A stretch of DNA of 18,112 nt, from UHGV virus genome UHGV-0337628. One strand, given 5' to 3'. Numbering within the stretch: the first letter of the stretch is position 1; each line of letters begins with the position of its first letter. Source of the DNA: a virus. A model generated the notes under the pieces. The model did no database searches. It saw only the letters and a list, made by a program, of their open reading frames with translations, and had not been told where the DNA came from. Shown here in pieces: positions 3,250 to 15,904 of the stretch. The translations under genes were made by a program, and so were the position numbers.

Positions 3250-4667
3250 TACTCAATCCTTATCTGGCAGCCAGACAGAGTGACAGGTGACTTCGTGATA
3301 ACGCGCAATTTGAAGCCAACATTTTTCCTGATGCGCCCTACTCGCTTCCACAAAACGCGTTTGTCGTAAACGAACGGTTCATTCTGCTCAATCATCTGCT
3401 CACGTCCGTAATTGATTCCGTCAGTGGTTGCAGAGAGGAACAGGCGGTCGGCGTACTGCGCAACGCCAGTTGACGATTCAACCTCAAGGTCGAACACTCT
3501 GGCGTTATCCGCTTTGAACAACGGAGTAAACAGCAGGTGTTCCTGCTGCTTGTCGTACTGGCTGCTGATATCGAACTGCAATTTCCCGGTCACGGATTCC
3601 AGCTTATCGCCGCACGTTATCTGATTGCCTTCGTAAATGAAGTCGATAGCGCGGTACACATCGTCATACAAGCCAGTTTTCAACACACACCATTGCGGAC
3701 CATTGGCGCTTGAAGATGCGTCGTACACGAGAACATGGCGCGCAAGATGGATAATCAGCAACTCATGCGCATCAAATCGCAGAGACTCCATCACACCATC
3801 AGCCAGTTCATCAGCAGTGTAGGCGCGTAGTATTTTCTCAATACTCGCGCTGGCGATTGGTGATACCTGACCGGAGCCGATGATGTATACAGACGGCGCA
3901 CCCGTTGCCGGATTGCTGATGAACGCATACGAATCAGCAAACGGCGTTTTGCAGTAAGTCCCGGCGATACCTTTTTGCACCATCAGTGATGGCTGTGCGA
4001 CATACAAAGCTGCACCAACGGTGGTTGCACCAGTCAGGGAGAAATATTCAATCGTCGATGAACCAAAGCAGACGATGAAGTCTCGCCATGTTCCGATGCC
4101 GATGATGCCGTCAGGCTGCGACTCGGCACGATATTGTGCGCTGTAGCGGTCAGGGTGCGATTCGTCTTCAGGGTCAGTGATAAACCATGAATCAGTACCG
4201 TCTTTTGACCACGCATAACGCCCACGTAAGCGCGTAATGTCGCGGACTGAGCCTAACTCATACTGCGTGAATCCGCTGTCTGTAGGCCAGTTTGAGACTG
4301 TTTTAACCGTGCCATCATAGCGATACTCGACCAGTTGACCATTAACGCCTACCGCCTGAGATGTCCGACCATGCGCCATTGATACGCGACCACTTCCGGC
4401 AACATCACCGACCTCGCTTTCGCCCTTATACAACTTGCCACCGCAAACGCGATAAACAGCATTCTGCGCCATGTTGTACTCGACACCGCGCGATACACCA
4501 TTCACATCAGAACGTTTGGCAATGCCCGGGAATGAGCGAAGATATCCGCTGCTGTTGAGTATTTCTTTGGGTGTAGCCAGCATATTCACTGGCAGATAGT
4601 CGATGTAGTCGGCGTTTCGGAAATCTTTGCCGACACCTTTCATAAGCGGAAGTTGCTGAATCGGCAT
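3249..4667 (-). CDS. head-to-tail adaptor / portal plug protein, P22 gp10-like
   Basis: 472-aa ORF (P22 gp10 is 472 aa) placed between the gp4-like and tail-needle genes. Confidence 0.75.
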
Positions 4668-13356: not shown

Positions 13357-13824
13357 TCATCGAAGGCATTGCGTCCTGATGTATTCCTGAAGCGTTCTCA
13401 GTGCTGTTTGGTCGCGGATAATTCTGTCCCGGATACCGAGAACGTTTCGTCCAGCAACTGGAGAGAGTTCGACGGTGGCATCATTGCCCATGCCGGAGGC
13501 GCTGGAGGTTTCGTCTGAGGATGGCACAGGGCATTTTCCTTTGACGAGCACCCTGCCACCATTATCAAGCTTCCGCCGAAGAGCATCATTTTCAGCTTTC
13601 GCATCAGCTAACTCCTTCGTGTATTTAGCATCAAGTGCATCAGCATCACGCTGGCGCTGCTGCATGTCAGTAATGGTGGCGGTCGCCTGCTTCAGCTCAC
13701 TGACTTTTTTATCGCGCTGTTCTTTGTAGGTAATGGCGTTATCACGGTAATGATTAACAGCCCATGATAGGCAGACGATGATGCAGATAACCAGAGCGGA
13801 GATAATCGCGGTTACTCTGCTCAT
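13357..13824 (-). CDS. Rz: spanin inner-membrane subunit (i-spanin) Rz
   Basis: 155 aa; N-terminal transmembrane segment and first ~85 residues match my recollection of lambda Rz ([34 protein letters not shown]...[13 protein letters not shown]), then the C-terminal half diverges; start overlaps the R stop. Confidence 0.85.
13398..13604 (-). CDS. Rz1: spanin outer-membrane lipoprotein subunit (o-spanin) Rz1, embedded in the +1 frame of Rz
   Basis: ATG at 13604 with AAGGAG Shine-Dalgarno; product [23 protein letters not shown]... has a signal peptide and lipobox (VAGC) and a Pro-rich stretch, like lambda Rz1; entirely inside Rz. Confidence 0.7.
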
Positions 13825-14297
13825 ACCTCAATCTCTCTGACCGTTCCGCCAGCTTCTTTGAATTTTGCAATCAGGCTGTCAGCCTTATGCTCGAACTGAC
13901 CATAACCAGCGCCCGGCAGTGAAGCCCAGATATTGCTGCAACGGTCGATTGCCTGACGGATATCACCGCGATCAATCATCGGTAAAGCGCCGCGCTCTTT
14001 AATCTGCTGCAGTGCAACAGCGTCCTGGCTTTTGGGAGAGAAGTCTTTCAGGCCAAGCTGCTTACGATAGGCATCCCACCAACGGGAAAGAAGCTGGTAA
14101 CGTCCGGCTGCTGTTGATTTGAGTTTTGGGTTTAGCGTGACAAGTTTGCGAGGGTGATCGGAGTAATCAGTGAATAGCTCTCCGCCTACAATGACGTCAT
14201 AACCATGATTTCTGGTTTTCTGACGTTCGTTATCAGTTCCCTCTGACCACGCCAGCATATCGAGGAACGCCTTACGTTGATTATTGATTTCCACCAT
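13821..14297 (-). CDS. R: endolysin, lambda R-type lytic transglycosylase
   Basis: 158 aa; [23 protein letters not shown]...[23 protein letters not shown]... is essentially lambda R as I remember it; start overlaps the holin gene. Confidence 0.9.
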
Positions 14298-14604
14298 CTT
14301 CTACTCCGGCTTTTTTAGCAGCGAAGCGTTTGATAAGCGAACCAATCGAGTCAGTACCGATGTAGCCGATGAACACGCTCGTTATATAAGCGAGATTGCT
14401 ACTTAGTCCGGCGAAGTCGAGAAGGTCACGAATGAACCAGGCGATAATGGCGCACATCGTTGCGTCGATTACTGTTTTTGTAAACGCACCGCCATTATAT
14501 CTGCCGCGAAGGTACGCCATTGCAAACGCAAGGATTGCTCCGATGCCTTGTTCCTTTGCCGCGAGAATGGCGGCTAACAGGTCATGTTTTTCTGGCATCT
14601 TCAT
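14281..14604 (-). CDS. S: class I holin / antiholin, lambda S-type (S107/S105 dual start)
   Basis: 107 aa; [39 protein letters not shown]... matches lambda S; Met1-Lys2-Met3 dual-start motif (ATG at 14604 and 14598). Confidence 0.9.
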
Positions 14605-15135
14605 GTCTTACCCCCAATAAGGGGATTTGCTCTATTTAATTAGGAATAAGGTCGATTACTGATAGAACAAATCCAGGCTACTGTGTTTAGTAATCAGATT
14701 TGTTCGTGACCGATATGCACGGGCAAAACGGCATGAGGTTGTTAGCGCAACCTCCTGCCACCCGCTTTCACGAAGGTCATGTGTAGAAGGCCGCAGCATA
14801 ACTATCACTGATGAATTCAGGACAGCCAGTGGCTACGGCTCAGTTTGGGTTGTGGCGGTCGGTGCTGAACTCCGACTTAATGACGATAGGCGTGTACCGA
14901 CGCCTCGTTTTACTTCCTCCGCTTTCACGGCTTCACCCTAGACCAGCTTTACGAAATCCTCGTAAACCTAACCGCGGCAGATATGACCGGCACGGTGTGC
15001 CATATCACGGACCGGCGGGTGTCTCGTTCACCTGATTAACGCATCAGCCTGCGTATTCACCACAACGATAAGAGTACTGCGCGGCACCTTTCACCAATTC
15101 CGCGAGGTCTGCGGGTTCAATGCTCTTACCTGTTG
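14605..15135 (-). other. untranslated late-operon leader, lambda-type
   Basis: About 530 nt without a credible ORF between the candidate terminator and S; the minus-strand sequence (e.g. ...CACGAACAAATCTGATTACTAAACACAGTAGCCTGGATTTGTTCTATCAGTAATCGACC...) matches what I remember of the lambda region between tR-prime and S. Confidence 0.6.
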
Positions 15136-15183
15136 TGCAAACAAAAAAGCCACCGTTGCAACTTAAGAGTCACTAACGGCAGC
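15136..15183 (-). terminator. intrinsic terminator at the tR-prime position of the late operon
   Basis: Minus strand GCUGCCGUU ... AACGGUGGC (9-bp stem including two G-U pairs) followed by CUUUUUUGUUUG; located just downstream of the Q gene and upstream of the lambda-like leader. Confidence 0.55.
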
Positions 15184-15186
15184 TTA

Positions 15187-15223
15187 CCCTCTAATTATGG
15201 CTAAATGGCTAATTGCATGTCAA
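15187..15223 (-). promoter_or_regulatory. candidate sigma-70 late promoter (pR-prime analogue) overlapping the Q stop codon
   Basis: Minus strand TTGACA (15223..15218), 18-bp spacer, CATAAT (15199..15194). The -35 hexamer lies inside the last Q codons and the -10 directly after the TAG stop. Predicted start ~15187, only a few nt before the terminator hairpin. Confidence 0.4.
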
Positions 15224-15719
15224 GGCTTTTAACAGCAACATGCTTAACTTTCTCAACACGTTTACGCATTTTGAAAGCATTTTGCATTGGTTGGTACAAA
15301 ACAAATAATGACGCTTTCAGGATATCGTCAATTTCGTTTCTACAGGTTGCCAGTGAAGGTTTTCTCCATCCCTCGCCACCACGCCCACACATCTTGCGTG
15401 GCTTTGCAGTCGCGTGATAGTAGGATGCAATTGCTCGCTTAGATGAACCATGAGCGTAGTAGCTGAGGAGGATGCCAAAGGCTTTCTTGTCAATGTACAT
15501 GACGGAATCGACGACCTGAGAAATCAACATTCCATCATCATCATTACACATTGGCCTTGTCATAACTCTTCCCGGCTCTACGCTCTCCATGAACTTCGCT
15601 ATTACGCTGCTCATGCGCTTTTCCAGGCGACCTGAATAAACCCATGCGCCCCACAGTTCAAGCCAGCCATTCAGCCACTCGTGCTGTTCTTTGGTGAGGT
15701 TTAGTTCTCTTATGCTCAT
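15201..15719 (-). CDS. late-gene antiterminator Q, P22 gene 23 type
   Basis: 172 aa; motifs WLELWGAWV and RPMCNDDDGMLI resemble the LERWGAW and RPQCCDDDAMI motifs I recall from P22 gp23-type Q proteins; immediately upstream of the late promoter/terminator and lysis genes; start overlaps the NinH stop. Confidence 0.7.
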   Translation of the reverse strand: MSIRELNLTKEQHEWLNGWLELWGAWVYSGRLEKRMSSVIAKFMESVEPGRVMTRPMCNDDDGMLISQVVDSVMYIDKKAFGILLSYYAHGSSKRAIASYYHATAKPRKMCGRGGEGWRKPSLATCRNEIDDILKASLFVLYQPMQNAFKMRKRVEKVKHVAVKSLDMQLAI

Positions 15720-15904
15720 CGCCTTCCCCTTTTGCCCTGTTTGACCATCAGGACGCCGTTAACTATTACGTGACGTTCGCCTTTGCTGTCTCGGTTGTAC
15801 TTGAGCACCGTTCCTCTTGCGCAGGAAAGCATCCTCGCCACTTCGGTCTGATTGCCTCGTGTCTGGATAAGAAGCTCTGGTATCGTTTGAATTGTGGCGT
15901 TCAT
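15716..15904 (-). CDS. ninH: NinH-like small DNA-binding protein
   Basis: 62 aa; ...TIPELLIQTRGNQTEVARMLSCARGTVLKY...HVIVNGVLMV aligns with lambda NinH (...KTIPDMLVEAYGNQTEVARRLKCSRGTVRKY...HAIVNDVLMV) as I recall it. Confidence 0.75.
   Translation of the reverse strand: MNATIQTIPELLIQTRGNQTEVARMLSCARGTVLKYNRDSKGERHVIVNGVLMVKQGKRGRR

Follow-up and report, generated by a model that had tools for sequence, protein, structure and literature searches.

The stretch of viral DNA analysed here (UHGV virus genome UHGV-0337628; 18,112 nucleotides (nt), referred to as the window) represents 18.1 kb of a CUS-3-like, P22-like phage (Lederbergvirus) with the late antiterminator gene Q and the lysis genes S and R on the minus strand. 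Positions 13800-15750 were 98.2% identical to CUS-3, a phage of Escherichia coli K1 RS218, and CUS-3 matched 77% of the length of the whole window with 94.8% identity. In a preliminary description of this DNA, a P22-type Q module was thought to be joined at the terminator to a lambda-type leader and lambda-type lysis genes. Between the late terminator tR' and S, on the late strand, a 214-nt element with a tRNA-like fold was found. Interest lies in what the junction contains rather than in the junction itself, since this element belongs to a widespread, unannotated family of tRNA-like RNAs. The coordinates of the features between Q and R are collected in Table 1.

The minimum free energy (MFE) fold of the isolated 214 nt was exactly the cloverleaf given in Table 1, and all four stems were recovered with RNAalifold from eight divergent relatives. 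The acceptor stem of 7 base pairs (bp), the D arm and the 5-bp T arm adjoining the acceptor 3' strand are those of a tRNA cloverleaf. The canonical loops of a tRNA (a 7-nt anticodon loop, a TTCRANY T-loop and GG in the D-loop) were not present; the T-loop is the 9-nt sequence AGUUCAGCA, and an insert of about 150 nt, closed by the anticodon-like stem, takes the place of the anticodon loop. With respect to the covariance model R1, which was built for this family, the element is full-length, with the D arm AAU-NCGC-AGGCUGAU-GCGN and a T arm containing CAGC. No family of Rfam 15, RF00005 (tRNA) included, was matched in permissive scans of 14200-15800 and 14835-15095 or in a scan of the whole window at gathering scores. 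No terminator lies directly 3' of the element; a terminator-like hairpin follows about 90 nt downstream.

Table 1. Features between Q and R in the window, with the tRNA-like element and its parts first.
Feature	Position	Strand	Evidence
tRNA-like structured RNA, 214 nt	14851..15064	minus	Covariance model R1, 76.8 bits, E 5e-19, model positions 1-125 (score by construction, the window sequence being in the R1 seed)
Acceptor-like stem, 7 bp, UGUGGUG / CGCCACA	15064-15058 / 14857-14851	minus	Then AAU linker
D-like arm, ACGC-AGGCUGAU-GCGU	15054-15039	minus	Cloverleaf fold
Anticodon-like stem closing a multi-hairpin insert of ~150 nt	~15032-15024 / 14888-14881	minus	Cloverleaf fold
T-like arm, GUCGG-AGUUCAGCA-CCGAC, directly adjoining the acceptor 3' strand	14876-14858	minus	Cloverleaf fold
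Leader hairpin, interrupted stem of ~18 bp, 3' arm adjoining the tRNA-like element	15063..15135	minus	MFE fold
23-nt island, 5' arm of the leader hairpin	15117..15139	minus	Identical to lambda 44785-44807, exact match, blastn-short
Antiterminator gene Q, phage-21 type, 172 amino acids (aa)	15719..15201	minus	Pfam PF06530, E 1e-25
Late promoter pR', TTGACA-18-CATAAT, overlapping the end of Q	15194..15223	minus	11/12 consensus positions
Intrinsic terminator tR', phage-21 type, target of Q antitermination	15143..15185	minus	Hairpin and U-tract
Lambda-type leader of the lysis genes	14605..14854	minus	97% identical to lambda 44936-45185
Terminator-like hairpin in the lambda-type leader, GGCAGGAGGUUG..CAACCUCAUGCC, then GUUUUG	14719..14765	minus	MFE -26.1 kcal/mol, z -2.3
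Holin S, lambda type	14281..14604	minus	Pfam PF05106, E 2e-30; 97% nt identity to lambda S
Endolysin R, lambda type	13821..14297	minus	97% nt identity to lambda R; R in matching records

Pairing within the cloverleaf was examined by comparison of related elements. Alignment of the window with the elements of IME10, a Hafnia phage and an Aeromonas phage revealed two conserved blocks around a variable centre, with compensatory changes in the 5-bp T-like stem (GUCGG/CCGAC, GCUGG/CCAGC, GCCGG/CCGGC). In a larger alignment of 61 sequences (A2), whose members had been chosen with a pairing filter, 98.9% of the cells expected to pair did so, compared with 92.4% in shuffles, none of 500 of which reached the observed value; controls with a slid register gave 28-54%. 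Of the 7 acceptor pairs, 4 had double (compensatory) changes, as had 2 of the 4 D pairs and 3 of the 5 T pairs. The acceptor helix contained no non-standard cell and 17 G-U cells. Tolerance of G-U pairs was confined to this strand, which fits an RNA transcribed in the late direction rather than a DNA repeat.

The fairer number was obtained by an anchor test, in which the D-loop and T-loop motifs served as the sole anchors and the flanks were read at fixed offsets, with no pairing criterion. Among 98 unique elements, all seven acceptor pairs were formed in 85 and all five T pairs in 82. The acceptor variants included TGTGGTG/CACCACA, GTTGGTG/CACCAAC, GATGGTG/CACCATC, TGCAGTG/CACTGCA, GAGGGTG/CACCCTC and GGCGGTG/CACCGCC. 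Positions 15064..14851 very probably encode a structured RNA that is under selection. The centre, about 30-160 nt long, was essentially unalignable between lineages. T-loops ranged from 7 to 15 nt, and 159 of 196 unique elements kept CAGC or CAGU in them. The near-invariant sequences GCUGAU in the D-loop and AUCAGC in the T-loop are complementary to each other, and we hypothesize that these loops may pair (kiss) at the elbow of the molecule.

The 291 nt between the boundary sequences annotated in CUS-3 (see below) gave matches of 81-85% identity in one Hafnia and one Aeromonas phage, and a core of about 40 nt was found in P1 and in Klebsiella, Erwinia, Cronobacter, Edwardsiella and Acinetobacter phages. 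Each annotated match was intergenic and oriented as the neighbouring late, lysis or tRNA genes. With R1, three tandem copies were detected in P1 downstream of tRNA-Asn/tRNA-Thr (88, 73 and 29 bits; at 2015-2151, 2444-2547 and 2705-2831, extract numbering), each after a long hairpin of its own; the P1 record carries no RNA feature on any of them. HK620 contains a copy of 88 bits inside its long late leader, and further hits were obtained in IME10, Hafnia phage Meifeng and Aeromonas phage 62AhydR11PP. Relatives independent of the model scored 60-95 bits, and the length within the family was 84-214 nt or more.

A scan of IMG/VR for the D-arm motif yielded at least 120 viral contigs. A scan for the 19-mer AATGCGCAGGCTGATGCGC in one genome per bacterial species yielded at least 120 species with hits to the full model (50-95 bits); full-length R1 hits came from Enterobacterales, Pseudomonas, Xanthomonadales, Burkholderiales, Rhizobiales and others. 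D-loop and T-loop were near-invariant, and of a non-tRNA type, in alpha-, beta- and gamma-proteobacterial prophages. Among the 5426 complete E. coli genomes of RefSeq, a match was present in 338 and covered nearly the whole query in 110; no annotated feature lay under any of the matches listed. tRNA genes were present within 1 kb at 21 of 128 viral loci, and all 52 of these tRNAs were on the strand of the element, none on the opposite strand. At several loci the element lies between tRNA genes, and the first open reading frame (ORF) downstream often encodes a holin. No description of this element was found in the open-access literature.

For comparison at the nucleotide level, the Q-to-S interval was aligned with lambda, P22, Sf6, HK620, phage 21, HK75, IME10 and CUS-3 by short-word BLAST and by global alignments scored per 30-nt bin. 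Identity to lambda was at background (20-57%) over 15750..14855, apart from the exact 23-mer at 15139..15117, and rose abruptly to 90-100% at 14854, which lies some 290 nt beyond the terminator. From there through S and R (14854..13800) it was 97.2% over 1055 nt, which bears out the lambda character given to S and R in the preliminary description. The string quoted there, TTGCACAACAGGTAAGAGCATTGA, is indeed an exact 23-nt match to lambda 44785-44807, directly after tR'. The lambda similarity described as running from about 15140 downward is not continuous: it falls to background (20-50% per 30-nt bin) for the 262 nt 15116..14855, between the 23-mer and the lambda-type leader, and resumes only at 14854. 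Continuous identity over the lambda late leader (44785-45185) was therefore absent, with only 15139..15117 (100%) and 14854..14605 (97%) being shared and lambda 44808-44935 (128 nt) replaced by the 262 nt of the window.

Sf6 matched the window over 15729..15138 (97.8%) and again from 14845; between these flanks it carries tRNA-Asn and tRNA-Thr. HK75 matched to 15056 and again from 14862, which is inside both acceptor strands. IME10 differed from the window only in the loop of the leader hairpin, and the match to P22 was limited to the S region (83%). The flanks of the junction are common to Sf6, HK75, lambda, IME10 and HK620 while the centre differs, as in lambdoid boundary sequences. The concept of such sequences at the junctions of lambdoid modules was reportedly put forward by Clark et al. 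in 2001, and it is established for lambdoid mosaics (PMC3029335). In the CUS-3 record (CP000711), 15200..15137 is annotated as 'bsq4; boundary sequence' and 14845..14605 as 'bsq3', and the 291 nt between them carry no annotation. The mosaic junction is real but ordinary, and already known and annotated in CUS-3.

The Q module was found to be of the phage-21 type, both in its PF06530 protein and in its 21-like pR' leader and terminator. The window Q protein is 82% identical to phage 21 Q at the amino acid level, and the gene is 97.8% identical to Sf6 gene 59 at the nucleotide level. P22 gp23 and lambda Q both belong to PF03589, similarity of gp23 to the window Q was undetectable (BLASTP E=5), and the Q/terminator region of P22 had no nucleotide match to the window; the assignment of Q to the P22 type in the preliminary description is thus wrong. 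The statement made there that Q and the terminator hairpin are not lambda-like holds, lambda being at background there, and so does that on Sf6/P22-like structural genes, as the virion genes are P22/CUS-3/Sf101-like. Over 44 nt, tR' is 100% identical to the leader RNA (aRNA)/terminator of phage 21, and the stretch with its hairpin had an MFE of -21.5 kcal/mol (z -2.9). The promoter pR' is annotated at the corresponding position in the Sf6 and HK75 records and is the sole sigma-70-like promoter upstream of the tRNA-like element.

A breakpoint does lie at the terminator, where Sf6 homology ends (15138) and the lambda 23-mer starts (15139), and a non-lambda Q/pR'/tR' is joined to lambda-type S and R as in a textbook modular junction. 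What does not hold is a single transition from P22 to lambda with a continuous lambda leader. As judged from the alignments, the Q-to-S interval is a finely mosaic late-operon leader of at least four segments, namely the 21-type Q/pR'/tR', the arms of the leader hairpin, the exchangeable 214-nt tRNA-like cassette and the lambda-type S leader from 14854.

Several of these borders coincide with pieces of RNA structure. The breakpoints of HK75 fall at the acceptor 5' strand and at the T-stem/acceptor 3' strand, and lambda resumes within the acceptor 3' strand. In P1, the motif ACAACAGGTAAGRGCAT of the 23-mer occurs again behind tRNA-Thr and behind every tRNA-like copy, and the HK620 leader contains it twice. 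The loop of the leader hairpin is of the CUS-3/HK75 type in the window and of the lambda type in IME10. Ten or more of the 14 nt immediately upstream of the element were paired in the MFE fold at 72% of 75 related loci, compared with 19% of shuffles; the MFE-based test was used for this count because a gapless search for the hairpin, which contains a bulge, gave an underestimate. Pairing was kept despite divergent arm sequences, e.g. ACGTTGAGAACA/TGTTCTCAACGT and TCGGAGGTCGGC/GCCGACCTCCGA. This pattern suggests that the boundary sequences at the Q-S junction may be conserved as RNA stems and then used as recombination patches. As with boundary sequences elsewhere, the non-homologous DNA between Q/tR' and S is bordered on both sides by short conserved sequences; unlike in the CUS-3 record, which makes no link to RNA structure, the patches here coincide with hairpin arms and acceptor strands.

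The slot downstream of tR' and upstream of the lysis genes is occupied by true tRNA genes in related phages (tRNA-Asn/Thr in Sf6 and phage 21, and in phage L). With the late-leader tRNA genes of Sf6, 21, L and P1 the element shares orientation, the 7-bp acceptor stem, the 5-bp T stem and a flanking motif; it differs from them in its lack of an anticodon loop and of CCA and in its 9-nt T-loop AGUUCAGCA and D-loop AGGCUGAU. In HK75 (1570-1701, extract numbering), 683R2 and HK629, a different tRNA-like element of about 127 nt was observed in the same slot. It combines the same acceptor stem with the D arm GCUC-AAUGGC-GAGC, a T arm of canonical sequence (GGTTCGATTCC) and a centre of 77 nt, and was not called by ARAGORN. 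Lambda and HK75 were not detected by R1 with default filters and were not counted as members. With filters off, HK75 scored 22.3 bits, with the same architecture and canonical loops. Lambda 44856-44942 scored 12.5 bits with filters off and contains only an 8-bp closing stem (UUGUGCUG/CAGCACAA) and AAU. Both the D arm and the T arm are missing, so that a cassette in decay, or an alternative one, seems to occupy the homologous position.

The closest known relative is the gammaproteobacterial prophage small RNA (sRNA) STnc100 (RF02076), which is encoded 75 nt downstream of stx2 in Stx2 phages and has been detected as RNA (PMC12370729). This places it in the same late-leader slot as the window element. 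Compared with the RF02076 consensus, the window element has the STnc100 architecture (a closing stem ..UGGUG followed by AAU and a D-like hairpin, then a middle part that varies, and a T-like hairpin adjoining CACCA..) and the same lambdoid late-leader location, whereas the sequences of the D and T hairpins differ. The third P1 copy scored with both models, reaching 33.9 bits with RF02076, short of its 47-bit gathering score. Neither the window element nor the copy in HK620 was matched by RF02076 even at E<=10, so the window element was not filed as a member of STnc100. The window family and STnc100 are likely branches of one superfamily. In the open-access literature STnc100 was not found described as tRNA-like. 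For PasD, a structural relationship to STnc100 and targets in RIL-seq (RNA interaction by ligation and sequencing) are reported (2026 preprint). The Pas sRNAs next to holin genes (Zhu, Shabalina and Storz 2026) were considered as an identity for the element and rejected, as they are terminator-bearing Hfq sRNAs and different.

The bacterial Y RNA YrlA is likewise a non-coding RNA with D-, T- and acceptor-like elements. The form of it whose acceptor stem has 7 bp is a substrate for cleavage by RNase P and for CCA addition (Chen et al. 2014; PMC4201824). Its ends, however, form the Ro60-binding stem, its gene adjoins rsr, and its T- and D-loops are canonical, whereas the ends of the window element form the acceptor stem, its loops are non-canonical and it has no Rfam match. 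No Ro60/rsr gene was present among the genes annotated around the near-identical stretch of CUS-3 (nin-region, Q and lysis genes).

Taken as a whole, the locus is in our view probably a mosaic leader with an exchangeable slot that holds a tRNA-like RNA cut from the late transcript. If instead a single recombination at the terminator had joined a foreign Q to a lambda leader and lysis genes, with functionless filler between them, the 23-nt lambda identity beginning right after the terminator, the 97% lambda-like S and R and the established idea of boundary sequences (PMC3029335; CUS-3 record) would all be accounted for. The single-breakpoint version is refuted by the 262 nt without lambda similarity between the 23-mer and 14854; these nt hold a covarying cloverleaf conserved across several classes of Proteobacteria, and Q is of the phage-21 and not the P22 type. 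We consider such a plain two-module mosaic very improbable. A small protein, or a site acting at the DNA level (inverted repeats belonging to a mobile element, or a site of recombination), appears more remote still. One would expect neither the differences seen between relatives, with 1-4-nt indels and complete exchange of the centre, nor the low-complexity, R/P/L-rich product of the 74-aa plus-strand ORF, nor compensatory and G-U changes confined to the stems and to one strand, nor a D/T/anticodon-stem cloverleaf inside inverted repeats; this outweighs the presence of that ORF (14811..15035), the coding sequences (CDSs) annotated at relatives (MIFENG_9 in the Hafnia phage, 'polyubiquitin-A' in 683R2) and the fact that the closing stem can be read as terminal inverted repeats.

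The element could also be a tRNA gene in decay (pseudo-tRNA), or what is left of a tRNA after an insertion into it, passively carried in the tRNA slot of the late leader. Real tRNA genes fill this slot in Sf6, 21 and L, the HK75 version has the canonical GGTTCGATTCC T-loop, and lambda retains the closing stem only, with a hypervariable centre in the family. Decay would not, however, preserve compensatory changes in three stems, and near-invariant non-tRNA D- and T-loops across three proteobacterial classes, or up to three tandem copies beside the intact tRNAs of P1, would be unexpected; we judge this origin unlikely. Slightly less unlikely, and compatible with the exchangeable tRNA-like cassette rather than exclusive of it, is a base-pairing, Hfq-dependent sRNA like STnc100 or PasD, whose seed would lie in the variable centre, with the tRNA-like part serving only as a stabilising scaffold. 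The match of the third P1 copy to STnc100 with the same architecture, the detection of STnc100 as RNA in the same slot of Stx2 phages, the reported relation of PasD to STnc100 with its RIL-seq targets and the terminator-like hairpin downstream of the element speak for such an sRNA; the failure of RF02076 to match the window and HK620 copies and the lack of a terminator immediately after the element speak against it.

Under the preferred reading, of a tRNA-like RNA cut from the late transcript, the RNA would be made only when Q lets RNA polymerase pass tR'. It is modelled to fold into a tRNA-like L-shape, in which the acceptor stem would be stacked on the T-like arm and D-loop GCUGAU and T-loop AUCAGC would form the elbow. 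Of the tRNA-maturation enzymes, RNase P could excise it at U15064, and RNase III or RNase E may act in the flanking hairpin; the 7-bp acceptor and T-stem helix would be the main determinant for RNase P. The chance that the RNA is processed by the tRNA machinery is put at slightly under even. The product would be a stable RNA whose variable insert may confer phage- or lineage-specific activity. At the DNA level, hairpin arms and acceptor strands held similar by structural constraint would provide homology patches for cassette swaps and so give rise to the observed junctions. More tentatively, the elements may constitute a large unannotated family of phage-borne tRNA-like RNAs, a natural 'tRNA scaffold' with strongly selected acceptor, D and T arms and a hypervariable insert instead of the anticodon loop, released from late transcripts or tRNA arrays by tRNA processing and acting in trans, which would explain the boundary flanks and include STnc100 as one branch; we hold this to be somewhat less probable than its negation. 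In trans, the RNA could decoy or sponge up host or defence factors that bind tRNA, or could carry variable guide or aptamer domains, and we place no confidence in any particular role.

Several results weigh against the preferred reading. The folding energy is ordinary (z -1.2 for the 214-nt element and -0.7 for 301 nt). CCA is not encoded, and position 1 is U. ARAGORN, run in default mode, with introns, with relaxed thresholds and in tmRNA (transfer-messenger RNA) mode, gave only low-scoring artefacts and did not call the element. Two nt of the acceptor strand also belong to the leader hairpin, an overlap that could be an obstacle to RNase P. The D-loop/T-loop pairing showed no double change among the 61 sequences of A2, and rare D-loop variants (8 loci from two extra viral scans) comprised one compensatory change, one wobble and about five mismatches. 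The hypervariable centre, finally, could mean that the centre has no function.

A covarying tRNA-like RNA has gone without annotation in the well-studied P1, HK620, CUS-3 and IME10, as well as in prophages of at least 120 bacterial species. It would offer a concrete, testable reason for the conservation of boundary sequences, namely a structural constraint at the RNA level on hairpin arms and acceptor strands, which bears on the shuffling of modules by homologous recombination. The comparison with RF02076 suggests that STnc100, a prophage sRNA, mimics tRNA. Provided that the RNA of the window family is processed and stable, a hypervariable insert in a conserved tRNA scaffold would be a candidate module of phage-host interaction. 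Several genome records carry spurious CDSs over the element.

On the plus strand of the window, the 74-aa ORF at 14811..15035 overlaps the RNA element antisense to it; a coding reading was rejected, the low-complexity product being not conserved. The equivalent antisense ORF of the Hafnia phage (2592-2789, minus, extract numbering) is annotated as hypothetical protein MIFENG_9, and both ORFs look spurious. In 683R2, the CDS 'polyubiquitin-A' lies just upstream of the HK75-type element, over the end of tR' and the leader hairpin, and was read as non-coding. Central blocks of the long variant (UAAUCAG..GAGCGAGA and GUAAAACGAGGCG..CGCCUAUCG) occurred in four IMG/VR contigs without the D-arm motif at the expected distance, and the central domain of this variant may be a separable module. 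The T-like arm GCCGGAGAUCAGCGCCGG (HK620 4161-4178; P1 2123-2140, extract numbering) gave weak, partial matches to rydB (RF00118; E 0.19 and 8.1), which are probably due to chance, although rydB could be a remnant of such an element. Endolysin R had no Pfam match at E<=0.001 despite its 97% DNA identity to lambda R. The terminator-like hairpin of the lambda-type leader has a 12-bp stem, lies about 115 nt upstream of S and is kept in sequence in lambda; it could form the end of a processed leader RNA or modulate expression of S and R.

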